Assembly: GCF_000025925.1 (NCBI RefSeq)
Contig: NC_014033.1
Location: 2,130,001 to 2,162,000, forward strand
Direction: 5' to 3'
Source of the DNA: Xylanibacter ruminicola 23
GTDB lineage: Bacteria > Bacteroidota > Bacteroidia > Bacteroidales > Bacteroidaceae
Length of the DNA stretch: 32,000 nt
Shown: positions 1,012 through 16,534 of the stretch, piece by piece
How positions within the stretch are numbered: position 1 is the first letter of the stretch
Layout: each line of letters starts with the position of its first letter
Position numbers and translations under genes: made by a program
The notes under the pieces: generated by a model
The model's database searches: none
Told to the model about the DNA's origin: nothing
What the model saw: the letters and a program-made list of their open reading frames with translations, nothing else

Positions 1012-2568
1012 TTATTTCTGCGAAAAATTCAGGAATCGCGTCAACTTACTAGTAATATTTCTTCTTAAATATAACAAAACTGTCTTTCTTTCGATTGTAT
1101 TGAGGCCGATTATATATATAGCAAGAATGCTAGTAAAAAAACATGCAACACAATTGATCACTAACCTTGTAATACTTTCCCCTACCATATAACGTATAGA
1201 TATTGGGATAATAGCTACAACGCCTGTTGTAAAAAAACATCTTATAACAACGTCAATGATGTACTCCTTAAAAGGAAATCCCGTTTTATCATTAACAACA
1301 TAAAACCTCACAAATATTAGAGAAAATGATATGACAAAAGCAATAACAAAGCAGGTTATCGCCGGCATTCCATGATAAAATGCGAACCATGATAGTGGGA
1401 ACAACAAACTGTTTACCGCAGACGTTATTATTTGGTATTTTTTTATATCCCCATGTGCCATCTGTATATAGTACAAAATATTGGATATCACAGTTGTTAA
1501 ACTTGCTGCTATAGTCCAGCGTACGAACGGCACAGATTGATCAGGTGGGTTTTTTAGCCATATTTTCAAAATTATATCCGTTTCTGCCATAATCGGAAAC
1601 GCGAGTACAAATGTTAAAAAAAAAGCAAATTTAGAACTCATGCATGTTAGATTGAATGATGAATTTATTTCTCCAGAGGCGTATGACTTCGTTATCTGAG
1701 GTTGTGCCGCCATCACAAAGTTCGTAACAAATTGTTGTATTACGTTATTCACTTGCACCGCTATACCGCGTGCAGCGTTCACGGCAACTCCGAAATATAC
1801 ATTGATGAGTAGATTAATTCCTTGATTATTAATATATACCATACCGTTTCCCATAAAATTCCATCCTACGAAAGATAACATTTCTTTTAAAAGTGGTATA
1901 TCTATCGAAAACTGGTATTTGCATTCATCAAAATGCTTAGTACAATAATGTCCATATACTATACGAACTAACAAGGCTACAATTAGAAGAAGAACAGAAT
2001 ATGTTTTTAATTTATCGAAAGGTGATATGTATAAAGAGTATGTGATAAGTAATCTTAATAATGCTTCTAATATCGAAATGTAAGCGAATGCGGACATCTT
2101 TTCATGCGCTATTATTAACGAATTATACGGAACACTTATTAGTCCAATAATAGAAGCAATAATGGAGCAATGTAAAACCCAGAATGCCGCATTTATTCTG
2201 GCAGGATCTACATTCATCTTATAGTTTAAAAACCAATATCCTATTAATTCCGCAAGTATTAGAACTAATATTGACATTCCCATTTGAGCATTAACACTAA
2301 TAGAAAACAAGTTTTTAAGTCGATTTAAATCACAACTTCCTATTGAGACTTGGAAAAACCTGCTTATCGCATTTGCTAACGAGCCCGATAGAATTGAAAA
2401 CATAACAACAAAACCACTGACCACGTTATATATTCCGAAATCCTCCACCCCAAGTACTTGTAAAATAATTCTACTCGTAAACAAGCCAATAAACATCAAC
2501 AGGAACATCCTAAAGTATAGCAAAAGGGTGTTTTTGGCTAATCTCCTAGTGTTAGAATTTTCACCCAT
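1012..2568 (-). CDS. wzx: Wzx-type oligosaccharide/polysaccharide flippase (MOP superfamily)
   Basis: 518 aa and hydrophobic throughout, with many TM helices. The N-terminus NTRRLAKNTLLLYFRMFLLMFIGLFTSRIILQVLGVEDFGIYNVV is typical of the polysaccharide biosynthesis flippase family. It sits in a glycan-locus context. Confidence 0.8.
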   Translation of the reverse strand: MGENSNTRRLAKNTLLLYFRMFLLMFIGLFTSRIILQVLGVEDFGIYNVVSGFVVMFSILSGSLANAISRFFQVSIGSCDLNRLKNLFSISVNAQMGMSILVLILAELIGYWFLNYKMNVDPARINAAFWVLHCSIIASIIGLISVPYNSLIIAHEKMSAFAYISILEALLRLLITYSLYISPFDKLKTYSVLLLIVALLVRIVYGHYCTKHFDECKYQFSIDIPLLKEMLSFVGWNFMGNGMVYINNQGINLLINVYFGVAVNAARGIAVQVNNVIQQFVTNFVMAAQPQITKSYASGEINSSFNLTCMSSKFAFFLTFVLAFPIMAETDIILKIWLKNPPDQSVPFVRWTIAASLTTVISNILYYIQMAHGDIKKYQIITSAVNSLLFPLSWFAFYHGMPAITCFVIAFVISFSLIFVRFYVVNDKTGFPFKEYIIDVVIRCFFTTGVVAIIPISIRYMVGESITRLVINCVACFFTSILAIYIIGLNTIERKTVLLYLRRNITSKLTRFLNFSQK

Positions 2569-2569
2569 A

Positions 2570-3850
2570 TCAATTTAATTGTAGGCTGTCCTTGATATTA
2601 TTGACAATATTTCTCGAAGCTGAATATCCATTTTCTGGTTTAATATACTTATTTAGAACCGCTTCACGAATTGTCATCATATCGTCTTTACCATCACAAA
2701 CAATATCTTGTAAAAATTTCTCTATATCCACTTTTTTATAAGCATGATAGTGGGCATTATAGGCATCGGTGCCATCTTCCGCTGTTTCCACATTTAATTT
2801 TCCTGAAAAAGCGATATATAGACAAGGCTTTTTAGTAAACATATAGTCAAGTAAAAAAGAACCGCAATCGTGTATTAAAGCATCTGAACTTTTAAAAATT
2901 TCATACGCATTCCCTTCATTTATAGAAGTGTTTGGCATTGACCTCCAACGATTATAATAATCATCGGCTTTTTGTTGCCCCCATTCTTGACATAAAGCAG
3001 GGTATAAATGAGGATGGGGTTTGAATACAAATTCTATCTCTTTCTCATATTTTTTAACCAAATCGATCATATATTCGTATATATCAAGAAAACAAGACAA
3101 ATGAAGCCACCCTTTAGAAGCTATTGAATGGTGAGGCGCCCATATTACATGTTTTTTGTTTGAGCTTTTCCAGTGATATTCTTTGCATTTGCAATATGAA
3201 TCATACCCTGTATATCCCAAGTAATACAAATTGTTATAACTTGGATTGAACTCTTTAGCAACCCTAACAGAAACTGAAGTTGGCATAAAATTTTTCCATG
3301 CAATTAAATTAAGTACAGATAAATAATTATGCTTAGTATAAGAAATCAAGTACCCATATGGAGTATAGCACAATAGAGAATCCTTGAGTTTGTCATAATA
3401 GTACTCCTTGCAGCATATCCTTGTATATGGTTGTGAGTAGAAGGCGATGTCAATATTGTATATTGAAACATCTTGACCTATGTTCAAATATTTATTTTTT
3501 AGTTTAACATAAGGGAATCTATTATCCTTACAATACATTTCCATAGCAGACACTTCATTTAGAAGATTTTTTATATTACCCTTTCGTGGTGCTATAAAGA
3601 AAATAGGATTAAAATATGGGTCTTCTTGCATAATTCGAAATACCTCTTCATATTTAAACATAGGTACGGACATACAGAAGAATGCCACATTAATTTGTTT
3701 TTTATGACGAATCCTTTCATATACTCTAGATAAATCTCTCTTTTCAAAAAGAGTTATGACAGCTTCGTCAGAAGGATATTCTTCTCTATTGCAGAAGGAA
3801 TTCAATTTATTAACAAGTTTGTTAACAATCTTATAGGCAAGCGATTTCAT
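2570..3850 (-). CDS. CDP-glycerol glycerophosphotransferase (TagB/TagF family)
   Basis: The blocks VIWAPHHS, FVFKPHPHL and SDALIHDCGSFLLDYMFTKKPCLYI match the conserved TagB/TagF layout. The gene is adjacent to a gene that makes CDP-glycerol. Confidence 0.7.
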   Translation of the reverse strand: MKSLAYKIVNKLVNKLNSFCNREEYPSDEAVITLFEKRDLSRVYERIRHKKQINVAFFCMSVPMFKYEEVFRIMQEDPYFNPIFFIAPRKGNIKNLLNEVSAMEMYCKDNRFPYVKLKNKYLNIGQDVSIYNIDIAFYSQPYTRICCKEYYYDKLKDSLLCYTPYGYLISYTKHNYLSVLNLIAWKNFMPTSVSVRVAKEFNPSYNNLYYLGYTGYDSYCKCKEYHWKSSNKKHVIWAPHHSIASKGWLHLSCFLDIYEYMIDLVKKYEKEIEFVFKPHPHLYPALCQEWGQQKADDYYNRWRSMPNTSINEGNAYEIFKSSDALIHDCGSFLLDYMFTKKPCLYIAFSGKLNVETAEDGTDAYNAHYHAYKKVDIEKFLQDIVCDGKDDMMTIREAVLNKYIKPENGYSASRNIVNNIKDSLQLN

Positions 3851-3858
3851 ATAAATAT

Positions 3859-5196
3859 CTACATTTGTTTAATCTGTTCTTTAAGCCAAGAAGAACTTAT
3901 ACCCTCCGTTCGCCCAAGAACTACATGTTCCTTTCCGTGATTTTTACACCATTTGATTGCATCCTGGAAGCCTGAGTGTATCTGGTCTGGTCCCGTAACA
4001 AAAATATCAAAATCTGCGACTTTTACAATTTCATCGACGCCTTCGTATGTAATAACGTCATCTACAAACCTAATCGATTTTACCATATACATACGTTCTT
4101 CTGTCGAATACACAAGCTTCGCTTGCGGCTTATACTTCAGAACCACTTCCGATTTTTGTACAGCAACCGTCAATGAATCACCCAGTGCTTGTGCTCTCTT
4201 AAACAAATTAACATGACCTATATGAATCATGTCATAAACGCCAACAGTTAATACTTTTTTGCCACTTTTTTTTGTAATTTCAGAATCCATCAGGATTCTA
4301 TTTTTTTTATTACTATTCATATTTAATTTATCTGTTGTTATTAAATCAACTCCTTGACAGAACATCTTGTCTGCTTCACTTTTTTCATTAATTGTAGCAC
4401 ATTTCATTATGAACCCTAGAGATTTTCCATACTCAATAATAGCTTTATAGTCTTTATCAACAAAACCAGGAAACCACTCTGAGGAAATAATTAAAGAGGC
4501 TACTTTCTTTTTCTTTTTTAATTCATCTAATTTAGCAAAACTCCATGTATGGTCTATCTGATAGATAAGACTGTTATCAATCGATGATATAGAATAGAAA
4601 TCAGAAGGTGACACTTCCCAAATAACCATATTGAGCATTTGGTATCTTTTCACCAGCTCATAAAGAATTTTATATTTTCGTCTACCAAGAAACTTCTTCT
4701 CAAGATCTAGTTCTATACATATTGAGTTCTCTTTACACAACGATAACAATTCTTCGAGTGTTGTTACTTTAATCGTCCTTTTATCTGTTATGCTAAAATT
4801 ATATTTTATAATTTCTGAAAAATCTATAGAATCGATCTTAATATTAACAGAATTACCAAAGTCATCTTTAGCAAAATTGAGAAGATTATCATCATGACAT
4901 AATACTGGCACATTGTCTTTTGTAAACATTACATCACATTCAACAATTTTAAAACCTTCATTTATTAAATAGTCATATAAAGACAGAGAATTATTTGGGT
5001 ACTCACAACTCTCAAATCTTCCATGTGCAACGTACTGTTTCTTATAAAAAATATCTGATGGTGTTCCGCCATTACTTAGAGGTGGACATACTTTAGATAT
5101 AAAAAGAGATGTTACTTTATGAAGAGTAAATGTAAATCTTTTAGACAACCATAAAAAGATTATATACATTTCTTTTAAAGATTTCCTTATTATCAT
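3859..5196 (-). CDS. Fusion protein: N-terminal glycerophosphodiester phosphodiesterase (GDPD) domain plus C-terminal glycerol-3-phosphate cytidylyltransferase (TagD-like)
   Basis: The N half has YVAHGRFE...IVECDVMFTKDNVPVLCHDDNL (GDPD motifs). The C half has KKVLTVGVYDMIHIGHVNLFKRAQALGDSLTVAV (HxGH nucleotidyltransferase motif) followed by ...RTEGISSSWLKEQI. Confidence 0.75.
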   Translation of the reverse strand: MIIRKSLKEMYIIFLWLSKRFTFTLHKVTSLFISKVCPPLSNGGTPSDIFYKKQYVAHGRFESCEYPNNSLSLYDYLINEGFKIVECDVMFTKDNVPVLCHDDNLLNFAKDDFGNSVNIKIDSIDFSEIIKYNFSITDKRTIKVTTLEELLSLCKENSICIELDLEKKFLGRRKYKILYELVKRYQMLNMVIWEVSPSDFYSISSIDNSLIYQIDHTWSFAKLDELKKKKKVASLIISSEWFPGFVDKDYKAIIEYGKSLGFIMKCATINEKSEADKMFCQGVDLITTDKLNMNSNKKNRILMDSEITKKSGKKVLTVGVYDMIHIGHVNLFKRAQALGDSLTVAVQKSEVVLKYKPQAKLVYSTEERMYMVKSIRFVDDVITYEGVDEIVKVADFDIFVTGPDQIHSGFQDAIKWCKNHGKEHVVLGRTEGISSSWLKEQIKQM

Positions 5197-5338
5197 AAGA
5201 AGACAACTATATTAGACAAACTCTAGCTATACATTAAAATTCTAAACGGCGGATCATAATCTTTGCTGATTAACATCCTGACAGCCATTCTGACCGCTCT
5301 CGGCACAAATTCGTGCATCAGTGAATTCATTAATTCAT

Positions 5339-5377
5339 GTAAACTGTCAATTTTGACGTCCAGACTTGAAAACCACC
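5339..5377. repeat. Third copy of the 22-bp arm plus a 17-bp extension. It is direct relative to 828-866 and inverted relative to 989-1010.
   Basis: GTAAACTGTCAATTTTGACGTCcagactTGAAAACCACC versus 828-866 GTAAACTGTCAATTTTGACGTCctggcaTGAAAACCACC (3 mismatches in 39). Confidence 0.85.
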
Positions 5378-5581
5378 TCCAAAGATGGAAGAGTAACTTG
5401 ATGTAAGAAGGAAGATGTAAGACGTAAGAGACTATTGATGGAAGAAGGAAGAGGGAACTGATGACCGTAGGGAATCTGTGTCTGAAGCGTTATTGTTCAA
5501 CCTCAAATTGAGGTTTTGCTAAATTATACTCAAAGTTTAATCCTTGACCAAATAGGTCTTTCAACCATACAACATATTCAT

Positions 5582-6244
5582 TTATTGCATTGGAACAGGC
5601 TCTTTATGGATCAACGGCTCTTTTACAAGGCTCAAAGCCTTCGTTTTAAGTTCCATTGTTTGTTGCATGTAATAAGAGTTGTGTATATCATTTTTGTCAG
5701 CTTCTTCAACACAATTTTGCGATTGCCTTAAAGTAATTGCTGCATTGTGAGCCACTGTTACTATCTCGGCAACCAACAAGGAACAGTTATCTACCAAATT
5801 TGATATTACATTTTCTTTTTCAAAGCCCTCATACTCTGCAAAGAGTATATGGAACTCATGCGTCATTTCCAGAATAGTATCATTAGTCCTATCAATCAAA
5901 GCATAAAGTGCTTTGTATTCAGACGCGCTATGCGCATAGAGTTGTAAGCTATTTTGCCCGTTTGATATCTTCTCTGCATAGTAGAGAAGGTTAAATAGGT
6001 GGCGCTTACGCTCCACTATATAGTCTTTCTTACGTTTTGTAGTAAAAGATATTTCGTTCTTTACTGTCTCAATTTGCTTTGTTATATCCTCTTTTGTGGC
6101 ATAGTTCTTACCTTTTTCGGCTTCGTAAGCCATTTTTCGTTCTGTGGACAAATCTGCCATACGCTTAGCATGGCGCTCTAAAAATACACATAGAACACCT
6201 ATGCAAAGGGTTACAATAAGAGATATAATTTCTAAAATTGTCAT
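5582..6244 (-). CDS. Hypothetical membrane-anchored, all-helical protein with no recognisable family
   Basis: 220 aa, with one N-terminal TM helix (ILEIISLIVTLCIGVLCVFL) followed by charged helical sequence. The gene is AT-rich and sits between ugd and the glycerol-phosphate genes. Confidence 0.55.
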   Translation of the reverse strand: MTILEIISLIVTLCIGVLCVFLERHAKRMADLSTERKMAYEAEKGKNYATKEDITKQIETVKNEISFTTKRKKDYIVERKRHLFNLLYYAEKISNGQNSLQLYAHSASEYKALYALIDRTNDTILEMTHEFHILFAEYEGFEKENVISNLVDNCSLLVAEIVTVAHNAAITLRQSQNCVEEADKNDIHNSYYMQQTMELKTKALSLVKEPLIHKEPVPMQ

Positions 6245-6332
6245 GCTATCACCGATAAACTATCTTATCTCTTCATAGTAGTGATAAACACGGCTTTTTA
6301 TAATCTGAATGTGCCAGCAAGGCTCTTTTAGA

Positions 6333-7646
6333 TTACTTCTCGCCTATCCTAGTATAGACAAACCCCAGTTCCTCCAGTTCCTGACGATCGTAGATATTAC
6401 GACCATCAACAACTACATTGCCAGTCATTACTTTCTTGATGACATTCCACGAAGGCATGCGGAACTGGCGCCACTCGGTCATCAGGGCAAACACATCAGC
6501 ACCATCGGCAGCATCGTACATATTAGTACAATAAGTAACTACATCACCAATGCGGCGTTTACATTCGTCCATCGCAATGGGGTCGAATACTCTAACCGTT
6601 GCACCATCTCTCAGCAGTTTATCAATAACCACCAAAGCAGGTGCCTCGCGCATATCGTCGGTTTCGGGCTTAAAGGCTAAACCAAGGATAGCTATCGTTT
6701 TACCTTGAACTTCACCTACTGCCTTGATAATCTTATCATATACTATCGATTTCTGCTTTTCGTTAACACGTTCTACAGCCTCGATCACCTCCATGTGGTA
6801 GCCATTATCCATACCGGTATGTACCAAAGCCTTAACATCCTTTGGGAAACAGCTGCCGCCATAGCCACAACCAGCATAAAGGAACTTGGAACCAATACGA
6901 GAGTCGGTACCGATGCCCTTACGAACACTATCCACATTGGCGCCAACACGCTCACAAAGGTTGGCAATATCGTTCATAAAGCTGATTCGTGTAGCCAACA
7001 TGGCATTGGCTGCATACTTGGTCATCTCGGCTGATGGTATATCCATAAAGATAACACGGAAGTTATTAATGAGGAATGGCTTATAAAGGCGAGTCATCAC
7101 CTCCTTGGCCTTCTCGCTCTCGGTACCTACTACCACGCGATCGGGACTCATAAAATCCTTAATAGCTGCACCCTCTTTTAAGAACTCGGGGTTGCTGGCT
7201 ACATCGAAGGGGACATTGACTCCTCGTTTATCCAACTCTTCCTGAATGACAGCCTTAACCTTCTTAGCGGTACCAACAGGTACGGTTGACTTGGTGACCA
7301 GAATGGTATACTTATTGATATTCTGACCAAACTGACGGGCTACAGCCAGTACATATTTCAGATCGGCTGAGCCATCCTCATCAGGAGGTGTACCAACAGC
7401 CGAGAATACTACTTCTACATCGTCGAGCACCTCGGTAAGGTCGGTAGTAAACTTAAGGCGTTCGAAACCCACATTACGTTTAACGAGTTCTTCGAGTCCA
7501 GGCTCATAGATAGGCATAATGCCATCCTTAAGCTTCTGTATCTTCTGCGCATCAACATCCACACAAGTAACATGTGCGCCCATCTCAGCAAAACAAGTTC
7601 CCGTTACCAGGCCCACATAGCCTGTTCCTACTATTGCAATATTCAT
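6333..7646 (-). CDS. ugd: UDP-glucose 6-dehydrogenase
   Basis: MNIAIVGTGYVGLVTG Rossmann motif and the catalytic CGYGGSCFPKDVKAL motif; 437 aa. Confidence 0.93.
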   Translation of the reverse strand: MNIAIVGTGYVGLVTGTCFAEMGAHVTCVDVDAQKIQKLKDGIMPIYEPGLEELVKRNVGFERLKFTTDLTEVLDDVEVVFSAVGTPPDEDGSADLKYVLAVARQFGQNINKYTILVTKSTVPVGTAKKVKAVIQEELDKRGVNVPFDVASNPEFLKEGAAIKDFMSPDRVVVGTESEKAKEVMTRLYKPFLINNFRVIFMDIPSAEMTKYAANAMLATRISFMNDIANLCERVGANVDSVRKGIGTDSRIGSKFLYAGCGYGGSCFPKDVKALVHTGMDNGYHMEVIEAVERVNEKQKSIVYDKIIKAVGEVQGKTIAILGLAFKPETDDMREAPALVVIDKLLRDGATVRVFDPIAMDECKRRIGDVVTYCTNMYDAADGADVFALMTEWRQFRMPSWNVIKKVMTGNVVVDGRNIYDRQELEELGFVYTRIGEK

Positions 7647-7718
7647 GATTAAACTTTGTTTTTATTTCAATTTATTGTTATTGGTGCCTCTTTACGCTTT
7701 TATATTCTCAATTTGATT

Positions 7719-8747
7719 TTATTCTGCAGAAAACTCTCTGATTCTTTGTTCCTCACTACGTTTGCAAAGGAGTATCTGGCCATTCTTCTCGCTGAAGATA
7801 TAGCCATCAAGTCCTTGGAGCACCACTTTCTTGGCATCTTCGGCATGAACTACACAATTATTGCACTCGTATAGCTTTACATTGCCAACTGCTCCGTTGT
7901 TATTATCATCCTTCTGCAGTTTATCATGCAATGAGGCCCAGTTGCCAAGGTCGCTCCAGCCGAAATCTGCAGGATGGGTATATACCAATTCATCGGCAGC
8001 AGCAGGTTCCATTACTGCAAAGTCGATAGAGATCTTTTCGCACTGTGGAAATATGTTTGCGACATCGCCTGTAGTTGTAATTATTTCCATGTCGGCAGCA
8101 ATGTTAGGCTTATATTTGGTAATACAATTGGTAATGGTTTCGATATTCCATACAAAGATGCCTGCATTCCAAAGAAAATTGCCTGCCTGCAAATATTTCT
8201 CGGCTGTATCATGGTCTGGCTTTTCTTTAAAAGCATTCACAACACAGATTTCGTTGTCAACGACCGCAGAAGTTTCAACATAGCCATAGCCTGTTTCGGG
8301 TCGTGAGGGCTTGATGCCAATAGTTACGATGGCATTCTTCTTGGCAGTGAATGCCAAAGCATTTGTTATTACACGTCGGAACTCCTCTGGATTCATTACC
8401 ACTGCATCGGCTGGGGTTACAACCACATTAGCTGTAGGATCTACCTGTTTAATGCTCCAACAAGCCCACGCAATGCAAGGGGCGGTATTACGAGCTGCCG
8501 GCTCTGCCAAAATATGATCAGCAGGAATATCGGGCAGTTGCTGTTTAACGATATCAACGTATTTGGCATTTGTTACCACCCAGAAGTTCTGCATAGAGCA
8601 GATGCCTTTGAATCGGTCAACCGTTAATTGAATAAGGGTGCGACCACAACCAAGTATATCAATAAACTGCTTGGGCAGCTCTGGTGTACTCAAAGGCCAA
8701 AAGCGACTACCAACGCCACCAGCCATGATTACGATGTGAGTATTCAT
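7719..8747 (-). CDS. manC: Mannose-1-phosphate guanylyltransferase (short form, no PMI/cupin domain)
   Basis: IMAGGVGSRFWPLS nucleotidyltransferase signature and FAVMEPA...DLGNW blocks; 342 aa. Confidence 0.85.
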   Translation of the reverse strand: MNTHIVIMAGGVGSRFWPLSTPELPKQFIDILGCGRTLIQLTVDRFKGICSMQNFWVVTNAKYVDIVKQQLPDIPADHILAEPAARNTAPCIAWACWSIKQVDPTANVVVTPADAVVMNPEEFRRVITNALAFTAKKNAIVTIGIKPSRPETGYGYVETSAVVDNEICVVNAFKEKPDHDTAEKYLQAGNFLWNAGIFVWNIETITNCITKYKPNIAADMEIITTTGDVANIFPQCEKISIDFAVMEPAAADELVYTHPADFGWSDLGNWASLHDKLQKDDNNNGAVGNVKLYECNNCVVHAEDAKKVVLQGLDGYIFSEKNGQILLCKRSEEQRIREFSAE

Positions 8748-8774
8748 TATATAATTTTATTTTTATTGTTCCAT

Positions 8775-8800
8775 CTGTCATAGGGACAGGTGTATGACAT
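8775..8800. repeat. Degenerate copy of the GGGACAGG palindrome (REP-like) family
   Basis: CTGTCATAGGGACAGGTGTATGACAT, compared with the consensus CTGnCAgGGGACAGGTnCCTGnCA seen at five other loci. Confidence 0.4.
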
Positions 8801-8820
8801 ATTTGTAGTTATAGTGCTTA

Positions 8821-8957
8821 GGATTATAATATACGAACTAATAATCCATTCGGGATTAATTAGCCCCGCTTAATAATCCGGGGCGGATTATCACACCTCG
8901 TATAATAATCGCAGGGGGATTAAAATTCTTGTTGAGATTCCTTAGCGCGGATTAAAA
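8821..8957. repeat. Phased array of short hairpins built on TAATCC/GGATTA arms (about 32-nt period)
   Basis: Stems are 8821-27/8841-47, 8842-47/8853-58, 8873-80/8884-91 (8 bp, loop GGG) and 8906-10/8918-22. Three successive units start TAATAATC(C). A further GGATTAAAA lies at 8949. Confidence 0.7.
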
Positions 8958-9029
8958 TATTTAAACTTAATAGAAATGACATCATACGTTTTCAATCTTC
9001 AAAAAAATGTTGAGATATTCATAGACTTT

Positions 9030-9875
9030 TCATTTTAATGCAGCAATAGCATCTACAACCTTTTGACGTACTACTTTTCTCTCCTCACAATCAACGCCAC
9101 ATCCAGCATAACAATTAACTAACAAGGCAAATAAACTATCCTTAGAAATGGAAGGAACTTTATTTCCATTAATTTTGGAAGACATTTTTTTTAGAACATT
9201 TAGCACAAAAGATGTTTGGAAATGACCTTTTGTAATTTGCCTCAGATTTCTACTATCATTATTTATCAATAACCTTGCTTTATCGATTTGATCTTTTGTA
9301 AAGTATGGCGATATTGAATTAATTATTTTATCTCTTTTGCTTACAGAAATTTTTACCGAGTGATCTGACTCCAAAATAGGTATACAAGAATCACCACATA
9401 CAGAGCACCCAATGCCAAATACATTATTTGCTATGTCATATATAACCATTTCCTTAGCCTCATTGAAAAATTCATCATAGCATTGAAGGATCTCATCTAT
9501 GTGGTCTTCCAATGATCGAGCAAGTTTTTTTAAGCACGCATTTACATTATAAGGACAATACATTACACATTCTATAGAATGGCTCAATGTACAAACAATC
9601 AATGGATGATTTTTAATATTCCCTGTATATGATGAGTAATCAGAATCTTTAGCAACAATACATTTTAAACCATGATTTAATATATCATTTTCATAATCTT
9701 CAAGATTCTTACAACCATCAACTTTCCTTATCTCAAATAAATTATTATCAAAATACTGAGCCCAAAATACTATATCATCATCCCCTTCTACGTAAACTAT
9801 GCCAATCTTGTTATAAAAACGAGCCTCAATATTCTGTGCAGGTATTGATAGACTAAAGCCTTCGTTATTCGACAT
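9030..9875 (-). CDS. DUF4435/TOPRIM (OLD-family-like) putative nuclease effector, AriB/AbiLii-like
   Basis: IGIVYVEGDDDIVFW (TOPRIM Glu block) and CIVAKDSDYS (DxD block); 281 aa. Its start overlaps the upstream ATPase stop by 11 nt. Confidence 0.7.
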   Translation of the reverse strand: MSNNEGFSLSIPAQNIEARFYNKIGIVYVEGDDDIVFWAQYFDNNLFEIRKVDGCKNLEDYENDILNHGLKCIVAKDSDYSSYTGNIKNHPLIVCTLSHSIECVMYCPYNVNACLKKLARSLEDHIDEILQCYDEFFNEAKEMVIYDIANNVFGIGCSVCGDSCIPILESDHSVKISVSKRDKIINSISPYFTKDQIDKARLLINNDSRNLRQITKGHFQTSFVLNVLKKMSSKINGNKVPSISKDSLFALLVNCYAGCGVDCEERKVVRQKVVDAIAALK

Positions 9876-11145
9876 AAGTTGTTGCGTTTTGCATATTAAT
9901 TAACTTCTTCGGATGATTAGCAGCAATTTCCGGAGCGTGGGTAGCAAAAATAATTTGAGCGTTAGGATTTAAACTTCTTATACTATTCACAAGGTTCCTT
10001 TGCCATTCTATATGAAGAGACAACTCAGGTTCATCAGCAATGAATACATAAGGTTTCTTCTGTTGCAGAAGTGTCTCTGTCAAAAGAATCAACAACTGCT
10101 TCTCACCAGATGATAACGCATTCATATCCAAGCTACGCTCATTTTTGTTTCCTATCTTAACAATTGGGATTAGACGACTTGACATAGAATCGAACTCAAT
10201 ATGCTTATCCTTAAAATATTGTTCAACAATATCAACATACATTTTAATTGGCTCTAAAATCTGCGCACGTTCTGTTTGATATTCTGCTGATAATTTTAGA
10301 ATCGCAGCAGTTCTATTCATCAAAGAAATAGACAACATCTCTTCTGCAGACAAAGAATCATCTCTATTATCAATCTTATTTATAACGTCTTTAATTCTCT
10401 CAGCATGTACTTTAATATCTTGCGTATGCATTCTAGCGTCACCAAAATAGCTAAAAACCCGATGTAACTCTGTTACAATATTCTCAGTAGTATACCCTTT
10501 TAATGTCTGAAATTGTTCATATGTAGGAATATTATCATATGCTTTATTGTACAACATCATAGAAACGATTTCTTCATTAAATTTTCTTGTTCGTTCATTT
10601 ACCTTTGTTTCAAGTTGCAAACGATAAGAGACAATCTGAGTCATTAAAAGATTCAGCTTTAAATCCACATCGGTTCTATTGGTATCAAGAAGCTTTCTAT
10701 CAGGTTTTTCAGAATTCTCACTGATTCTGTTAATTGACAACCAAGATACATTAACCAATTCTTCAAGTCTTTCCCTAAGATGTTGGTACAAATTTCGCGA
10801 AGTAGACCTTGCACGAAAAAAGAACCTACCATCTGATCTCATATCTATAACCTCTCCATCAGGGAAAATATAACGATATGATGGTGTTACTAAATCATCC
10901 ATTATACGCTGGATCATTATTGTTTTTTCCTCTTCATCATGAATAGTTATTTCAACTTCGGAAAAAACTATATCATCAATTGCGCCCAAATCCAAATTCA
11001 GCAAAGCCTCAACTATACGCAAAAAAGTCGTTTTACCAGATCCATTTCCACCTATGAGAATATTCACATCCTCAAAAAAATCTATGCGAATATGCTTCAC
11101 ATCCCATAACCCCCGTATGCTAACGGATTTGATAATATTTTTCAT
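9865..11145 (-). CDS. ABC/SMC-like AAA ATPase (AAA_15/21/23 type), AriA/AbiLi-like
   Basis: Walker A GGNGSGKT, ABC signature LSSGEKQ, Walker B YVFIADEPELSLH and H-loop FATHAP. A long helical insert lies between Walker A and the signature motif. 426 aa. Confidence 0.8.
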   Translation of the reverse strand: MKNIIKSVSIRGLWDVKHIRIDFFEDVNILIGGNGSGKTTFLRIVEALLNLDLGAIDDIVFSEVEITIHDEEEKTIMIQRIMDDLVTPSYRYIFPDGEVIDMRSDGRFFFRARSTSRNLYQHLRERLEELVNVSWLSINRISENSEKPDRKLLDTNRTDVDLKLNLLMTQIVSYRLQLETKVNERTRKFNEEIVSMMLYNKAYDNIPTYEQFQTLKGYTTENIVTELHRVFSYFGDARMHTQDIKVHAERIKDVINKIDNRDDSLSAEEMLSISLMNRTAAILKLSAEYQTERAQILEPIKMYVDIVEQYFKDKHIEFDSMSSRLIPIVKIGNKNERSLDMNALSSGEKQLLILLTETLLQQKKPYVFIADEPELSLHIEWQRNLVNSIRSLNPNAQIIFATHAPEIAANHPKKLINMQNATTYVE

Positions 11146-11530
11146 TATTTGCTATTTAGTTTTAATTTTATATATGGTTTGTCTACTATTTCCTTTTCAG
11201 TAAATAAGAATACTACCAATTGAAAAACGTCTATTACGTCGCCAAGTATTGCTTTCTATATTACAGTTCATATCAAAATAAAAATCAAGTTTCTATAAAG
11301 AATAACTTCATGAGGTTCCTGGCGCACCTGAACCGCTGTTTTCTCAATTTAATGGGTATATTTTTATATTTACCGTTAAAAAACTTAAATAATCCTTATC
11401 TCATTTAACAATGATGACGAGTATACTAGTCATCATGCTTCGTGGCTGAAGTGGTACTTTCGCGGGCGCGAATGCGCGATAAATTGGGGCTTTTTGCCCC
11501 GGAAAGTAACATCAAAATTTTTAAGTCACA

Positions 11531-11845
11531 ATGAAAAAATTCAATGCAAAGATTCCCGTTTTGGGAGAGGGTATGGCAAAATTTGCCATGCAGCAGTTAT
11601 TAACTCAAATCAGACATCAGCATGGGCTGACCAGATTTATTCAACGAAATGGTGTGAACGGCAGATGGCTGCGTGCCGATGAGCCTTACGACATCCATAT
11701 TTCAAGATTTTTCCAAATTGTACGTATCAAAGCACACTATCAAACCGAAGATGAATTCCTAGATGATTGGAACGAACTCGGAGAGGCTATTCTGGATGAA
11801 GCACGTGAGTACTACAAGAATCTCTATCAGAAGATGAACGACTAA
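11531..11845 (+). CDS. Hypothetical small protein (possible HTH), first gene of the plus-strand module
   Basis: 104 aa of ordinary composition. It ends 13 nt before the next start. The overlapping ORF 11494..11682 looks spurious. Confidence 0.5.
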   Translation: MKKFNAKIPVLGEGMAKFAMQQLLTQIRHQHGLTRFIQRNGVNGRWLRADEPYDIHISRFFQIVRIKAHYQTEDEFLDDWNELGEAILDEAREYYKNLYQKMND

Positions 11846-11858
11846 CCTACAACATGCC

Positions 11859-13019
11859 ATGGACCCAATAACTAATGAACTGGCTCATGCCGGCGAACAA
11901 CCCAGCGTTACACCAGAGATTCTGGAACTGGAGAATAATCGTATCACCTCTACTAAAGTACTGGCTCCTATGGAGTTCCTGTTTTCGCTGTTTAACGAAC
12001 CTTGTTTTCCACGACGTGAGCTAGTGGCCTTTACTGGTCGCGCCAAGAGCGGTAAGACATTCGTGATGTCGATGCTGATGGTGCTTTGTGTGATGGCAGA
12101 AGTCTTGTCTTTCCGTAGGCTTACGGAGAGCAAGCTTCGGCTTTTATGGTACGACACGGAACAGAGTGACAACTCTACTCAGGACATCCTGAAAAACCGT
12201 ATCATGCCCCTTTATGAGCGTGTCAACAAAAATGGGGCTCCTTTCCCCGAGGATATGTTTGACATTTTCAATGTTCGTAATCTGGATCGAGAGAAGCGCG
12301 AGGCCTATCTCATTGCTGCTATCAATTACTACAAACCCGACTTAGTGATTCTGGACGGTATCCGCGACTTGGTGGGCGACATCAACGACGGCACGGTGGC
12401 ACAGGAGCTCATCGAAAAACTGATGCACGTGGCTCAGGAAAAAGATTGCTGTATTGTATGTGTGCTGCACCAGAACAAGAGTGGCGAGAGTCGCGACCCG
12501 CGAGGCTGGTTAGGAACCGAGCTGCTGAACAAGGCCTTCGACGTGTTTGCTACCGAGAAACTGATGCCGCAGCGTATCTTTAAGCTTGAACAGCTTTACA
12601 CCCGCAAGTACGATATCGAGCAGGATCTGTATTTCACTGTGGGCGATGATGGATTGCCTTGCATTACCGAGGCGCCTCCTATGGCCTATCAATCGCTGCA
12701 GGATGATGATGAGCAGGAGCGCCCACCACTTAACGGCGATTACATAGTGCGACACCTAGACGGTAGCTGGGAGATGGATGTGCAACGTTTGTTTACCGAT
12801 GCCTTCCAAGGCCATGATTCGCTTACTGGGGCTGCACTGCGCTATGCGGTGATGAACTTAGGTCAGATAGCCACTCGCAATCTCTACATCAAATGCCTTA
12901 ACAAGGCCATGAGTCTGGATATGATGTTGAAGAGCCACGACAACCAAAATCATGTGATTTATCGACTTAAATCAGCTCCACCTGTAAAGCCTGTTGCAGA
13001 ACAGATTGAGATATGGTAA
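11859..13019 (+). CDS. RecA-fold AAA ATPase (AAA_25/RepA-, DnaB-C-terminal-like)
   Basis: Walker A GRAKSGKT, Walker B DLVILDGIRDL and the CVLHQNKSG sensor block typical of RepA/AAA_25 proteins. Confidence 0.7.
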   Translation: MDPITNELAHAGEQPSVTPEILELENNRITSTKVLAPMEFLFSLFNEPCFPRRELVAFTGRAKSGKTFVMSMLMVLCVMAEVLSFRRLTESKLRLLWYDTEQSDNSTQDILKNRIMPLYERVNKNGAPFPEDMFDIFNVRNLDREKREAYLIAAINYYKPDLVILDGIRDLVGDINDGTVAQELIEKLMHVAQEKDCCIVCVLHQNKSGESRDPRGWLGTELLNKAFDVFATEKLMPQRIFKLEQLYTRKYDIEQDLYFTVGDDGLPCITEAPPMAYQSLQDDDEQERPPLNGDYIVRHLDGSWEMDVQRLFTDAFQGHDSLTGAALRYAVMNLGQIATRNLYIKCLNKAMSLDMMLKSHDNQNHVIYRLKSAPPVKPVAEQIEIW

Positions 13020-13115
13020 AAACCTAACCCCTTTTGAGGCCTCCCCCAAGATTGGAGTACTCCTTAACAGGAGTACGTAAATCTTTAGGGGGAAAGGGCC
13101 TCTCCGATCGCCCCC
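13020..13115. repeat. Nested hairpin element related to the 5' module of the mosaic repeats
   Basis: GGCCTCCCCCAAGATT..GGAGTAC TCCTTAACA GGAGTAC..AATCTTTAGGGGGAAAGGGCC. The motif GGCCTCCCC-loop-GGGGAGG recurs at 15661-15680. Confidence 0.5.
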
Positions 13116-13124
13116 CAAATCATT

Positions 13125-13847
13125 ATGAAGTTGAAAGATCTATTTAAAGACTCGCTCAGAAACCTCGGCCTGTATATGCCAACGCCACCTTTATGGGTGC
13201 GGTCGTTATCGGCCAGGAGCTGCTTTTGCCGGGCGGTGGTTGCCAACGGGATGCTTACCAAGCGGCAGATGGTGCATGCATCACTGCGCTATCGGTTAGG
13301 CCGATCGAAGAATGATGCCGTCATCTACTGGCAGATCGACCAGATGGGCCGGGTGCATGATGGGAAGTTGATGTGGTATGGTGCCGACTGCCATCGGTTG
13401 AAGAACCGCAATGCCACGTGGGCGATGTATCTGCTGAAGAAGCACTTCAAGCTGCCACAGGGCAGTTTTCAGAGCAATCACGTTTTCTTCGGTTTGCATC
13501 TGGTTCGGGAACCATGCACGGTTTGTATCGTAGAGGCCGAGAAATCGGCGGTTATCTTATCGGAGCTGTATCCGCAGTATGTGTGGCTGGCGGCAGGCGG
13601 ACTGTTTGAGTTGCAGCCTCAGAAGTTCTGGGCCTTGCAGCACTGCCAGATTATCTTGTTGCCTGATACCGATGAGGAGCTGAGAGCTTACACACAGTGG
13701 TACGGAGTGGCGCAGCAGGTAATGCAATCGTTTTTATGGCCTAAACAGAACCGTATCTACGTATCCGACTTTTTAGAGCGCCATGCCTCGGCCGACCAGA
13801 AACGGCGGAAAATCGACCTTGTGGATTATATCCAGGAATCAACTTAG
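13125..13847 (+). CDS. Toprim-domain protein (primase-like catalytic core, no recognisable zinc finger)
   Basis: CIVEAEKSAVILSE (Toprim Glu) and IILLPDTDEE (DxD). Confidence 0.6.
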   Translation: MKLKDLFKDSLRNLGLYMPTPPLWVRSLSARSCFCRAVVANGMLTKRQMVHASLRYRLGRSKNDAVIYWQIDQMGRVHDGKLMWYGADCHRLKNRNATWAMYLLKKHFKLPQGSFQSNHVFFGLHLVREPCTVCIVEAEKSAVILSELYPQYVWLAAGGLFELQPQKFWALQHCQIILLPDTDEELRAYTQWYGVAQQVMQSFLWPKQNRIYVSDFLERHASADQKRRKIDLVDYIQEST

Positions 13848-13909
13848 TTTCGCTCCGTAATCAATTTACTTTTTATCTAAAATCAAGTTACTTTTCAACC
13901 ACAATCAAT

Positions 13910-14239
13910 ATGGTAAATTACTACAATAAGCATTTATTTATCAGCAAGACCAAACTGGCCGAACTGGCTGGTGTATCAGACCGTACCTTTTCTCGTTATC
14001 TCAGTAGTCGCCAGCATATCCTCGAAGCAATGGGAGTAAGCCGTAAAGCTCAACTGCTACCACCACAGGCCGTGAAGTATGTTTGTGAAGATTACTGCAT
14101 CGATCTACCACCGGAGCTGCAGGATCAGCGTGTACTGCAGAGTCATCAGCTTTATCAGAAGGTGGTGCGTGAGTTGCAACTGACTACCTTTTTTGACGGC
14201 AAGTGGACGAAAATCACAGAAATTCCACCTGATTTCTAA
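13910..14239 (+). CDS. DUF4248-like helix-turn-helix protein
   Basis: KTKLAELAGVSDRTFSRYL HTH followed by LLPPQAVKYVCEDYCIDLP. The gene occupies the usual Bacteroidales position just upstream of an HU-like gene. The family assignment is from memory. Confidence 0.5.
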   Translation: MVNYYNKHLFISKTKLAELAGVSDRTFSRYLSSRQHILEAMGVSRKAQLLPPQAVKYVCEDYCIDLPPELQDQRVLQSHQLYQKVVRELQLTTFFDGKWTKITEIPPDF

Positions 14240-14319
14240 TTATTTTTCTCGAAGTCCGCCAAAGTCCGCCAATGCCATCTTAAAAAGCCGTACCTTCGCA
14301 GTGTCATTCCGGATGGCAC

Positions 14320-14347
14320 TAATGTTTAATCTTTAATGTTTAATCTA
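14320..14347. repeat. Heptamer tandem array, 4 units (TAATGTT TAATCTT TAATGTT TAATCTA), ending 4 nt before the HU-like start codon
   Basis: Read directly. It is the reverse complement of the (C/G)ATTAAA arrays elsewhere in the window. Confidence 0.85.
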
Positions 14348-14351
14348 AATT

Positions 14352-14873
14352 ATGGTACGTTACATTTTGCAGCAAATCAAAATCACCGGCAACAAGTGTT
14401 TTGGTAAGTGGTTCGCCAAGAACGTGGTTGAAGAGACTATCGACCTGGATGCTTTGGCCGAACACATGAGTCATCACAATTCGCCTTACTCGAAGGGCGT
14501 TATCAAGGGTCTGCTCACCGACATGATTGGTTGTATCAAAGAGCTCCTGCTGGAGGGTAAGAACGTGAAGATCGACGACCTGGCCATTTTCTCGCTTGGT
14601 ATCAAGAACAAGGAGATGGCGGAGAAGGAAGAGGACTTCACTGTATCTAAGAACATCAGCGGTGTGAAGTTGAAGGCCCGTGCCACTGGCGACCTGATGA
14701 GTAAGAGTCTTAACCTGGAGGCTACCCTGAAGAAGGCTACCTTTATCAATGGCAAGCTGGCTACTGAGCCAAGTAATGGCGGCGGTGGTAATACCAGTGG
14801 CGGAGGTTCTAATACGCCAAGCGGCGGTGGTAACACCGGTGGTGGCGGTAACCATGAGCCTGTCGGTGACTAA
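14352..14873 (+). CDS. HU-like DNA-binding protein with a glycine-rich tail (HU_HIG type)
   Basis: The N-terminal HU-like fold MVRYILQQIKITGNKCFGKWFAKNV...LLEGKNVKIDDLAIFSLGIK is followed by the tail GGGGNTSGGGSNTPSGGGNTGGGGN. Confidence 0.75.
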   Translation: MVRYILQQIKITGNKCFGKWFAKNVVEETIDLDALAEHMSHHNSPYSKGVIKGLLTDMIGCIKELLLEGKNVKIDDLAIFSLGIKNKEMAEKEEDFTVSKNISGVKLKARATGDLMSKSLNLEATLKKATFINGKLATEPSNGGGGNTSGGGSNTPSGGGNTGGGGNHEPVGD

Positions 14874-14878
14874 ATTTT

Positions 14879-14936
14879 AGGCACGGGCTACACGGATTAA
14901 CACGGATTAATTTCCTATAGTCCTGTAGTCCGTTGC
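14879..14936. repeat. CACGGATTA tandem motif plus TAGTCCTGTAGTCCGTTGC (dispersed family, terminator-like position)
   Basis: AGGCACGGGCTACACGGATTAACACGGATTAATTTCCTATAGTCCTGTAGTCCGTTGC. Related copies lie at 24969-25028 and 29832-29860. Confidence 0.7.
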
Positions 14937-14973
14937 TAAAAACTAACTCTTAACCCTTAAAATTGTATTCTAT

Positions 14974-15078
14974 ATGGTGAAAGTAAACTGGACCAAAGTT
15001 GCTAAGGTCCTTAAATTTGTCGCAACAGTTATTACCTCAGTTCTCGGATCCATAGCCGTACAGTCATGCGCTCAGTAA
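14974..15078 (+). CDS. 34-aa small membrane peptide (smalltalk-like / holin-like position)
   Basis: It falls below the ORF-track size cut-off. ATG at 14974 and TAA at 15076 give MVKVNWTKVAKVLKFVATVITSVLGSIAVQSCAQ. The peptide overlaps the amidase start (15066) by 13 nt in another frame. Confidence 0.5.
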   Translation: MVKVNWTKVAKVLKFVATVITSVLGSIAVQSCAQ

Positions 15079-15512
15079 ACTTGATTGTTATTCACTGCAG
15101 CGCTACCCGCTGCAACAGGCGTTTCACTGTCGATATGCTCAAGGCTTGTCATAATGCCCGGTTCGGCAACAAGGGTATTGGTTACCACTATTACATTGAG
15201 CGTGATGGGCATCTGTATCAGACGCGTGATGAAAGCCTTGTGGGCATGCATGCCAGGCATTACAATGCGCACTCGATTGGCATCTGCTATGAAGGGGGCC
15301 TTAACGAGCGTGGCCAGGCTGCTGATACTCGTACGCCGGAACAGCGTGCAGCGTTAATTGCCTTATTGAGGAGCCTCAAGGAGGATTATCCTCAGGCCGA
15401 GATTCTGGGCCATCGGGAACTCGAAGGGGTTCACAAAGAGTGTCCATCTTTTGATTGTCAGGAGTACCGAGATTACTTCTCGGGCTCTTCTGTCAGAGGG
15501 ACAGCCTCTTGA
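15066..15512 (+). CDS. N-acetylmuramoyl-L-alanine amidase (Amidase_2/PGRP, AmpD-like)
   Basis: IVIHCSAT, GYHYYIERDG and GHRELEGVHKECPSF zinc-ligand blocks. The last ~8 codons are encoded by a REP-like repeat. Confidence 0.85.
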   Translation: MRSVNLIVIHCSATRCNRRFTVDMLKACHNARFGNKGIGYHYYIERDGHLYQTRDESLVGMHARHYNAHSIGICYEGGLNERGQAADTRTPEQRAALIALLRSLKEDYPQAEILGHRELEGVHKECPSFDCQEYRDYFSGSSVRGTAS

Positions 15513-15557
15513 CATCTTCAGGGATTTGTTTCTGACACAGGGACAGGTCCCTGACAC
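15490..15557. repeat. REP-like palindrome pair (GGGACAGG family)
   Basis: CTGTCAGAGGGACAGCCTCTTGACAT (15490-15515, degenerate) and CTGACACAGGGACAGGTCCCTGACAC (15532-15557). Confidence 0.75.
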
Positions 15558-15610
15558 CTTATTAATAAATATAGAAGGTTTTCAACACCTTCAAGTTTCC
15601 CTGATTGTCC

Positions 15611-15900
15611 TTTTCTCTGGCGCAGAGAAAAGAACTAAAAGAGACATTCACCCTTCCAAGGCCTCCCCTCAAGGGGAGGATGCAAAGTCAGGATTTGGGA
15701 AAACCGCAAATCCCTCCTACCTTTTTGGCAGGCCGGGACTTCGGCCTATATTGTTTATAGCTGCTCTATGAGCAGCGGCCCAAAGGGCCTACCCTAATAC
15801 CATGCTAAAACACCGAGGGGTTATGCCGCGCGGCTGGGGGCGAGCAGCCACCCAAAGAGCGAGGGTGGGTGGAGCGAGCTTTATGCGAGCGGGGGGATAA
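15611..15900. repeat. Mosaic hairpin-module repeat, copy B1 (full length)
   Basis: The core at 15691-15820 is nearly identical to 25888-26015. The 5' part matches 16093-16239 and the 3' part matches 27827-27929. Confidence 0.85.
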
Positions 15901-16092
15901 CCCTATTTTACTACTTGTGCAATCTCTTTCTTGAAGAGATCACGAGCATTGTGATGCACATTACCTAGATAAAATTCATCGAAAGCTCGCTTCAAACTTT
16001 CCTTTACCATCTCCTGTTGAGACAGCACGTTTCTATTCTTCATCGATTGAGCGATATTTGATATTTGCAAGTTTTTATCTTTTATTCGTTCA

Positions 16093-16239: not shown

Positions 16240-16244
16240 TGGGG

Positions 16245-16530: not shown

Positions 16531-16534
16531 TTCT

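Follow-up and report, generated by a model that had tools for sequence, protein, structure and literature searches.

Organization and Assignment of the Gene Pair

The 32,000-nt stretch analyzed here (the window; contig NC_014033.1, positions 2,130,001 to 2,162,000) originates from the rumen bacterium Xylanibacter (Prevotella) ruminicola 23 / ATCC 19189 and contains two adjacent minus-strand genes, which very probably form a PARIS-type anti-phage system consisting of an AriA ATPase and an AriB nuclease. The ariA-like gene (9865..11145) encodes a 426-aa ABC/SMC-type ATPase (WP_013063901.1 / ADE81914.1), and the ariB-like gene (9030..9875) encodes a 281-aa DUF4435/TOPRIM protein (WP_041386030.1); in RefSeq, they are labeled "AAA family ATPase" and "DUF4435 domain-containing protein". 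The coordinates of the open reading frames (ORFs) and the junction sequence confirmed the 11-nt overlap reported in the first-pass annotation of this DNA (9865..9875, minus strand; ATGTCGAATAA), in which the ATG of the ariB-like gene is followed by the TAA of the ariA-like gene. All the protein motifs quoted there were found in the translations. The look-up returned only a WP_ accession for the DUF4435 protein, while its neighbors also carry ADE accessions from the original GenBank submission; therefore, the ariB-like gene may have been missed in the 2010 annotation.

According to the detection rule of Rousset et al. (2022), PARIS is called from adjacent, co-oriented genes matching AAA_15 with at least 32 bits or AAA_21 with at least 27 bits, together with DUF4435 with at least 27 bits. 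The two genes are co-oriented and overlapping, and all three Pfam scores exceeded these thresholds: the ATPase reached 82.3 bits with AAA_15 (7e-23) and 76.2 bits with AAA_21 (6e-21), and its partner reached 39.8 bits with DUF4435 (5.7e-10). Both PADLOC models matched as well, AriA with 1.6e-43 and AriB with 3.8e-10; the next family for the ATPase, PtuA, scored 3e-23, which is twenty orders of magnitude worse. Phage families exist for both proteins in PHROGs (8.5e-58 and 8.5e-34; PHROG 33182 for the AriB-like protein), and these matches were much better than those to Pfam. Together with the solved-structure matches described below, the results support the earlier proposal of a phage-defense cassette built from an ABC ATPase and a DUF4435/TOPRIM protein. 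They also answer the question, raised at that time, of whether the pair belongs to the known family or to a separate clade: by every operational test it lies inside PARIS, a known and widespread family, of which it is a divergent representative located in a compact sub-clade. PARIS has been divided into 11 clades in which AriA and AriB co-evolve (Burman et al. 2024, PMC11464382).

In every relative examined, the ATPase and DUF4435 genes co-occur with overlapping frames. The overlap is kept at 4-23 nt in the loci of relatives fetched for comparison and numbered here with the prefix L (L001, L004, L006, L059, L060, L062, and the phage locus L070). The two genes are inherited together.

ATPase

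The translated ATPase contains the Walker A (GGNGSGKT), signature (LSSGEKQ), Walker B (YVFIADEPELSLH), and H-loop (FATHAP) motifs. Their key residues, K38 of Walker A, S345-Q350 of the signature, D371-E372 of Walker B, and H403 of the H-loop, are invariant in 44 homologues, and K38 and E372 align with K39 and E393 of Escherichia coli AriA, which are the residues mutated in published work. Among solved structures, the best sequence match was E. coli AriA (8ux9/8v45, 1.9e-22), with the Walker A and Walker B regions aligned. The solved AriA entry bears the label 'AriA antitoxin'. A model of the ATPase was built with AlphaFold2 (AF2) from the 44 homologues and had a predicted local distance difference test (pLDDT) value of 80. 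The top 16 Foldseek matches of this model were all AriA chains (E from 2.9e-20 to 1.9e-12, template modeling (TM) score of 0.57-0.69, 431-466 columns), followed by a group of retron/Septu PtuA (9e-12), Rad50, and SMC heads with a TM-score of about 0.4. The ABC ATPase of the AriA fold is intact, with all catalytic motifs present.

The long helical insert noticed at first reading is real and corresponds to a coiled-coil region at residues ~159-310, in which AF2 placed helices at 159-195, 209-259, and 267-310. Two basic/polar loops, 106-113 and 137-157, were modeled with low confidence. The first of them is the low-pLDDT part of a disordered basic loop, RSDGRFFFRARSTSR, at residues 103-117, and by analogy its placement is suggestive of the positively charged pore loops that bind the acidic Ocr protein in E. 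coli AriA. The ATPase had been thought to be small; since the solved E. coli AriA has 464 aa and the homologues of this protein have 419-431 aa, a length of 426 aa is not unusual. An assignment to ABC transporter ATPases was rejected: all NCBIfam scores were far below the cut-offs, and no equivalog came near its threshold.

DUF4435/TOPRIM Protein

The 281-aa protein contains the TOPRIM-type blocks VYVEGDDD and AKDSDY. Its AF2 model had a pLDDT of 92.6 and a predicted TM-score of 0.88, and the top Foldseek match was AriB (8v46_D), aligned at full length over 303 columns. This was the sole match with a probability of 1.00, all others having values of 0.30 or less. E. coli AriB coordinates two metals with E26, D30, D88, E90, and E122 (PMC11464382). 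The predicted two-metal acidic set of the AriB-like protein comprises E30, D34, D77, D79, and E102 and has the same local spacing; all 53 sequences have E30, D34, D77, and E102, and 51 of them have D79. The position of E102 was obtained from a profile-to-PDB alignment, which sets the family motif YSIEN on HSLEN of E. coli and thereby E102 on the catalytic E122, while the other four residues were placed by motif and spacing and not by residue-level structural alignment. As modeled, the protein has an AriB-like fold with an intact predicted two-metal TOPRIM site.

The family has a further invariant motif, [K/R]216-G217-H218-F219. Of the 13 cysteines in the protein from the window, six are retained in the Bacteroidales subfamily, C107, C255, and C259 without exception and C103, C164, and C263 almost without exception. 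The same cysteines are partly conserved in the broad clade, where C263 is often replaced by His; such a pattern in the sequences suggests an optional structural metal site.

Relatives and Their Neighborhoods

The narrow-profile AriB-like family included 929 clusters at 50% identity, 273 of them at E<=1e-30, and almost all members were about 280 aa long. The compact clade, with an ATPase of about 420-430 aa and an AriB of about 280 aa, is broad and partly phage-borne: its several hundred 50%-identity clusters extend from Bacteroidales to Proteobacteria and a P2-like phage. In the scan of species-representative genomes, X. ruminicola 23 itself was not among the matches, meaning that the species representative lacks the pair or that this stretch is outside the collection scanned, and the closest AriB relative was found in a metagenome-assembled genome (MAG) of rumen Prevotella (63%), followed by other Bacteroidales MAGs (34-39%) and by Beta- and Gammaproteobacteria, a cyanobacterium, and others (25-31%). 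Plasmid relatives of the protein are annotated as DUF4435, and the deposited phages yielded one relative, in the P2-like myophage vB_EcoM-813R9.

Capsule context was counted in nine distinct contexts of the close subfamily (at least 48% identity), the window included and with no background control. In seven of the nine, polysaccharide genes lie downstream of the pair on the same strand. These are manC in the window, rmlD/rmlC-like genes in L067, epimerases of the GDP-mannose-dehydratase type in L058/59, an aldose epimerase and a nucleotidyl-transferase in L060, and a family 2 glycosyltransferase (GT2), only 40 nt downstream, in L062/63; in L004, the sugar genes follow an IS66 insertion sequence, and in L001, they follow two small ORFs. 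The embedding of the pair between capsule genes, pointed out in the first-pass annotation, is thus a feature that recurs in relatives. The AAA_25/DUF6371/HU/amidase module found next to the pair in the window, or a primase/VapE/HU version of it, flanks the pair or its capsule genes in L056, L058, and L062. A search of the literature collection used found neither a described link of defense genes to Bacteroidales capsule loci nor anything relevant on the HU/amidase/primase module.

Other defense genes were present in many of the contexts; they comprised Thoeris-like TIR/ThsA_Macro, GmrSD, AAA_15+HNH, PIN_12, and Mrr genes. The more distant Bacteroidales relatives occupy ordinary defense islands instead of capsule edges. 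On a contig of a Bacteroidales MAG (L023, 5997-13840), the pair, with a 37% identical AriB, is located between hsdR and hsdM/hsdS of a type I restriction-modification (R-M) operon, and in L025, it adjoins an Eco57I/MmeI-type methylase. These neighborhoods, namely the R-M operon, the P2-like coliphage hotspot, and the defense genes, fit a PARIS defense role.

Two of the loci carry the same AriB (P0033) next to different forms of the ATPase. In L059 (191-1474), the ATPase is intact with 427 aa; in L058 (8730-9728), the gene call gives a truncated product of 332 aa, after which there is a gap of 270 nt, and this locus may represent a naturally inactivated AriA beside an intact AriB.

Genomic Setting and Base Composition

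Downstream of the pair, the gene scan delineated a co-oriented capsule/polysaccharide block (1012..8747, minus strand) with manC (7719-8747), ugd (6333-7646), a GDPD and cytidylyltransferase gene (3859-5196), a glycerophosphotransferase gene (2570-3850), and ORFs of 220 and 518 aa. On the other side, a plus-strand module (11531..15512), regarded as context outside the PARIS system, encodes a 104-aa ORF, an AAA_25 helicase-like ATPase, DUF6371, a 109-aa ORF, HU-HIG, and Amidase_2 (amidase gene at 15066-15512). Beyond the amidase gene are wza, a 144-aa ORF, wzc, and two Mfa2-like genes on the minus strand, and then a NusG/UpxY-like gene and PGI on the plus strand.

The pair had been described as an AT-rich islet. 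With a G+C fraction of 0.311 for the ariB-like gene, 0.338 for the ariA-like gene, and 0.316/0.327 for the spacers, it is indeed more AT-rich than manC (0.443), ugd (0.463), and the 11.5-15.5 kb module (0.41-0.52). However, equally low values (0.31-0.37) were found for the distal capsule genes at 1-6.2 kb, so the pair is not a unique islet, and the low G+C content is a feature of a larger variable region. The mean G+C fraction was 0.387 at 1-15178 and 0.489 at 15179-32000.

A tRNA scan of the 32-kb window detected no tRNA, no Rfam family was found in it, and there was no integrase among the scanned neighbors of the pair, as had been stated before. A Y1_Tnp (IS200/RAYT-like) gene encoding 295 aa is located at 26053-26940, 15 kb from the pair. 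Dispersed intergenic repeats of 105-137 nt (86-88% identical) occur at 905-1010, 15628-15898, 16113-16239, 25881-26015, and 27826-27925, and related copies are present in other Prevotella-type contigs (L004). Together with the Y1_Tnp gene, these repeats suggest a system like that of repetitive extragenic palindromic (REP) elements and their REP-associated tyrosine transposases (RAYT). In L001-L003, a 163-aa ORF just upstream of AriA resembles part of the Y1_Tnp gene (71% nucleotide identity).

Tandem heptamer arrays were found at 14320-14346, 16415-16454, 17342-17377, 17808-17883, and 23539-23588, with units ACATTAA (plus strand, up to 10.9 copies), the related AAAGATT/AAACATT, and TAATCTT. 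They fill short gaps of the wzc-wza block, the gap between the NusG-like gene and PGI, and the region upstream of the HU gene. A PIN_3-domain protein of 152 aa (27000-27458), some 16 kb away from the PARIS pair, adjoins a small upstream ORF of 95 aa, the latter known from the annotation of the identical L064; the two look like a VapBC-type toxin-antitoxin pair.

Intergenic Spacers and Repeats

The spacers on both sides of the pair, 8748..9029 between the ariB-like gene and manC and 11146..11530 upstream, had been described as gene-free and structure-rich. They contain no genes apart from one unsupported 62-aa ORF. The spacer next to manC contains a degenerate array with a period of 32 nt at about 8821-8954. 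In this array, GGATTA recurs exactly every 32 nt, at 8821, 8853, 8885, 8917, and 8949, and (A)TAATCC keeps to the same register; the whole spacer has 7 GGATTA/(A)TAATCC cores against 0.21 expected. The unit identity is only 40-63%, which is why Tandem Repeats Finder misses the array. A period of 32 nt corresponds to about three helical turns, and by its sequence the array looks like phased protein-binding sites. No second GGATTA cluster of this kind was detected elsewhere in the window or in any fetched locus. A metagenome scan for GGATTA-N26 x4 was of no use as a source of similar arrays: it gave 120+ matches, 115/120 of which were ordinary high-identity tandem repeats, and none was like the spacer.

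The motif CTGTCCCTnTGnCAG occurs in three copies against 0.03 expected, all on the minus strand, at 8775-8789, 15490-15504, and 15532-15546. The first copy (CTGTCCCTATGACAG, 8775..8789) lies about 30 nt upstream of the manC start and the other two at the 3' end of the amidase gene, so that the three copies bracket the PARIS pair and the plus-strand 11.5-15.5 kb module. In L067, the alternative sugar genes also have a variant of the motif upstream. The copy at 15532 is part of a CAGGGAC-CT-GTCCCTG palindrome, and a related 31-nt repeat containing GGGACAGG is present at 25704-25763. The 32-nt array and the CTGTCCCTnTGnCAG motif could serve as regulatory sites or recombination joints, or they might be elements of the REP type.

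The upstream spacer, shared with the divergent 104-aa gene, is the presumed ariAB promoter region. It contains a 13+13-nt palindrome, ATGATGACGAGTA/TACTAGTCATCAT, at 11411-11436 and GC-rich inverted repeats at 11452-11511. Sigma-70-like promoter sites were not above the level of shuffled sequences, no Bacteroidetes TAnnTTTG motif was found, and neither spacer contained a terminator-like site.

Strain Comparisons

The X. ruminicola assembly GCA_019973335.1 (L064) was 100.000% identical to the window over 15,240 bp, from 30418 down to 15179, and unrelated beyond this point. The breakpoint at 15179 lies inside the amidase gene, and past it L064 carries a longer amidase, two unknown ORFs, a protein with an adenosine-deaminase domain, and an SNF2 helicase. 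The exact AriB protein was not found on GCA_019973335.1. The break would be explained by a segment replaced very recently or, in a near-clonal strain, by a rearrangement involving paralogous amidase genes. Two further samples yielded contigs (L067 and L068) that matched the window at 99.5% identity over 2.6 kb, from 11428 down to 8853, and carried both ORFs in intact form; at 8853, within the 32-nt-periodic GGATTA array, they switched to different sugar genes. Thus, different capsule cassettes adjoin an identical PARIS module, and the pair is part of a strain-variable region. Horizontal acquisition is indicated by its low G+C content and by the fact that only some of the compared X. ruminicola assemblies carry it. 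With regard to an independent insertion of the 2.1-kb pair alone, the strain comparisons place the pair within a larger variable segment only.

An empty-site test with the identical manC protein was discarded. In all 23 contigs retrieved, an identical 1,743-bp piece (7084-8826) began and ended at the same positions, and the flanks were unrelated. This piece, comprising manC and the 5' part of ugd at 100% identity, was found on short high-coverage contigs (L009-L016 included) of the samples ERZ7615xx and SRR15777xx, flanked by a phage CII-like gene, peptidase M50, and an FUSC-like gene. It is probably an insert of a cloned genomic or functional library and not natural variation; therefore, the manC contigs are uninformative as to whether the pair is present or missing.

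The cassettes seen at the junction of the module and the capsule genes included PARIS, Thoeris-like, GmrSD, and AAA_15+HNH systems. We tentatively suggest, as an idea that is rather doubtful at present, that in Prevotellaceae/Bacteroidales of rumen and gut the junction of the conserved primase-helicase/HU/amidase module and the first capsule sugar genes could be a dedicated hotspot for defense cassettes. The spacer repeats (the 32-nt-periodic GGATTA array and the CTGTCCCTnTGnCAG motif) could then serve as joints for the independent recombination of defense and capsule cassettes, and the defense genes might read through into the capsule operon. If true, phage-receptor variation and intracellular immunity would be exchanged, and perhaps expressed, as one unit.

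Proposed Mechanism and Alternative Interpretations

In E. coli, an AriA hexamer forms a scaffold that holds AriB monomers inactive (PMC11464382); the trigger is Ocr, a DNA mimic that blocks type I restriction and BREX, and the released AriB targets tRNA-Lys, tRNA-Thr, and tRNA-Asn at the anticodon stem (Burman et al. 2024, PMC11464382; Belukhina et al. 2025, PMC12409363). The mechanism proposed for the pair, including its stoichiometry, trigger, and target, is inferred by homology with this E. coli B185 system. The AriA-like protein would oligomerize into a scaffold with AriB monomers held inactive. A phage protein would bind to it in an ATP-dependent manner, the trigger plausibly being an acidic anti-restriction protein recognized by the basic loop RSDGRFFFRARSTSR (103-117). 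AriB would then be released, dimerize, and cut host RNA with its TOPRIM site, whereupon translation would stop and the infection would abort. The cassette, at the upstream edge of the capsule block in a strain-variable, low-G+C region, could be recombined with different sugar-gene cassettes.

Several observations weigh against the PARIS assignment or against its E. coli form. The Foldseek match of the AriB-like model to 8v46_D was weak (E 0.024, TM-score 0.48/0.45, root-mean-square deviation 7.1, 11% identity). No sequence match to a solved AriB was obtained with the protein alone (phmmer), a 28-sequence profile, or the Pectobacterium relative, and a 53-sequence profile from a library-wide HMMER search against the whole PDB retrieved only the two AriB entries, with marginal E-values of 0.039 and 0.058; hence, the link of the 281-aa protein to solved AriB rests on the fold comparison. 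In E. coli AriB, R28 and R31 contact AriA (PMC11464382), and K60 and K64 clamp the anticodon loop (PMC12409363). Neither pair of residues has an evident counterpart here, and the helix at the position equivalent to K60/K64 (58-68, LEDYENDILNH) is acidic, its net charge averaging -0.3 to -0.6 over the family. The AriA interface, target, and specificity may therefore differ from those of E. coli. The 32-kb window contains no R-M or BREX genes and thus no local system for PARIS to 'guard'. Finally, the literature search found no experiment on any member of the compact sub-clade.

In one alternative, the architecture is that of PARIS and the biochemistry is different: the trigger would not be a DNA-mimic anti-restriction protein, and the substrate would not be the anticodon stem of tRNA-Lys/Thr/Asn but another tRNA, mRNA/rRNA, or DNA, as in OLD/Gabija. 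We regard this as a considerable possibility, though one below an even chance. The pore residues of AriA, to which trigger specificity is attributed, show little conservation across PARIS clades (PMC11464382), the clamp and contact residues named above are not recognizable, and OLD and GajA, which follow the same ATPase+TOPRIM logic and cut DNA, gave a PADLOC match to the ATPase (GajA 1.2e-13). Because the AriB-like protein is so divergent (11% identity, TM-score about 0.48), the E. coli trigger and RNA target are not transferable to it. On the other hand, a five-acidic-residue site belongs to the class described for RNA-cutting enzymes of the AriB/M5 type, and a relative inside a type I R-M operon is what would be predicted for an anti-anti-restriction sensor. 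Such a difference would refine the PARIS assignment more than compete with it.

An addiction or stabilization module of the toxin-antitoxin kind, which would keep or spread the variable capsule/defense region and for which phage defense would be secondary or absent, appears improbable. PARIS is sometimes classed with toxin-antitoxin-type systems (PMC13139388), the solved AriA carries an 'antitoxin' label, and the pair is low in G+C, lies at recombination junctions (at 8853 with L067 and inside the segment replaced relative to L064), and occurs as an identical module linked to different sugar genes. However, the neighbors of its relatives are overwhelmingly dedicated defense genes and not addiction modules, relatives occur in a phage defense hotspot, E. 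coli AriB stays inactive until the phage trigger and not until the decay of AriA (PMC11464382), and a truncated ATPase beside an intact AriB (L058) would not be tolerated under the classical antitoxin-loss model. Least likely of all, and in our estimation highly improbable, is the view that the pair is inactive or decaying and was carried along when capsule genes were transferred horizontally. The low G+C content of a variable region, the lack of an assigned promoter, and the truncated 332-aa ATPase of L058 could be taken in this sense, but both ORFs of the window are full-length with every catalytic motif intact, the 99.5%-identical copy over 2.6 kb from other samples also has both ORFs intact, and length and active-site residues are maintained in the family, which comprises several hundred clusters.

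Considered as a PARIS system, the pair adds little to what is known: PARIS occurs in about 5% of genomes (5.2%; Rousset et al. 2022, PMC9122126), it has already been called in Bacteroidales by standard tools, and RefSeq has annotations for both genes of the locus. In this family, divergent sequences are to be expected. The first-pass remark that such systems are little studied in Bacteroidales is partly true; even so, DefenseFinder calls PARIS in Bacteroides fragilis NCTC 9343 (PMC13139388). Being far from the sole characterized AriB, the compact clade would offer a good comparative test of the generality of the PARIS mechanism. The less ordinary aspect is the recurrent placement at capsule-locus edges in the nine contexts sampled, with a junction in the periodic array. 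Such placement suggests an exchange, in Prevotella, of linked modules that combine genes for surface receptors with genes for immunity; if confirmed, this would bear on how rumen and gut Bacteroidales coexist with phages.

Comparison with Known Systems

The PARIS system of E. coli B185, encoded on a P4-like satellite (PMC9122126, PMC11464382; PDB 8UX9, 8V45-8V49), is the best structural match for both proteins. Both systems consist of two genes, one for an ABC ATPase and one for a DUF4435/TOPRIM protein. In both, the ATPase adopts the AriA fold, including coiled-coil insertions, and has the full set of ATPase motifs, and the spacing of the five acidic TOPRIM residues matches. In contrast to E. 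coli, the AriA of the window is 38 aa shorter (426 vs. 464 aa) and its AriB, with 281 aa, falls about 25-35 aa short of the deposited chains (305-316 aa), the AriB subfamily is cysteine-rich without evident equivalents of R28/R31 and K60/K64, and the pair is chromosomal, at the edge of a capsule locus of a rumen Bacteroidales. The distance from the CHARACTERISED system is large, with an AriB identity of about 11% and a TM-score of 0.48, and without single-sequence similarity.

A closer relative is the pair of the Escherichia phage vB_EcoM-813R9 (P2-like, Peduoviridae; ON470620.1), which has the same compact format of overlapping genes for 419-aa and 283-aa proteins and belongs to the same sub-clade, its AriB being 29.6% identical over 89% of the length. 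It is located between gpV and gpS, in a variable region of the phage that holds defense genes (the P2-like hotspot). It differs in being phage-borne in Enterobacteria, and its products are labeled 'putative enzyme with ATPase activity' and 'hypothetical protein'.

The OLD-family nucleases and Gabija GajA likewise couple an ABC ATPase to a two-metal TOPRIM nuclease, and the AriB TOPRIM superposes on Ts OLD and GajA (PMC11464382). They are single-chain proteins with Toprim_Old that act on DNA, whereas here the ATPase and the TOPRIM, the latter in a DUF4435 context, are in two separate ORFs, which rules out a Gabija/OLD assignment. The PADLOC models GajA and ATPase-Toprim (8.9e-16) cover the ATPase only and are far weaker than AriA. 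The PtuA ATPases of Septu and retrons belong to the same AAA_15/21 superfamily and were the second-best structural and hidden Markov model match (TM-score about 0.4 vs. 0.6-0.69 for AriA). Septu was ruled out, since the partner of its PtuA is an HNH nuclease (PtuB) and not a DUF4435 protein; the NCBIfam PtuA score was 53.5 bits against a cut-off of 500. The AbiL suggestion of the first-pass annotation was not borne out either: in PADLOC, the ATPase matched AbiLi weakly (5.4e-15 vs. 1.6e-43 for AriA), and the second protein had no AbiLii match, only that to AriB.

A functional parallel is PrrC of the EcoprrI type I R-M locus, a latent tRNA-Lys anticodon nuclease that is silenced by its partner and released by a phage anti-restriction factor. 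PrrC differs from PARIS in its unrelated fold and family and in being silenced by the R-M enzyme itself instead of a dedicated ATPase. Its position in the EcoprrI hsd operon recalls the arrangement in L023, where the relative of the pair described here lies inside an hsd operon.

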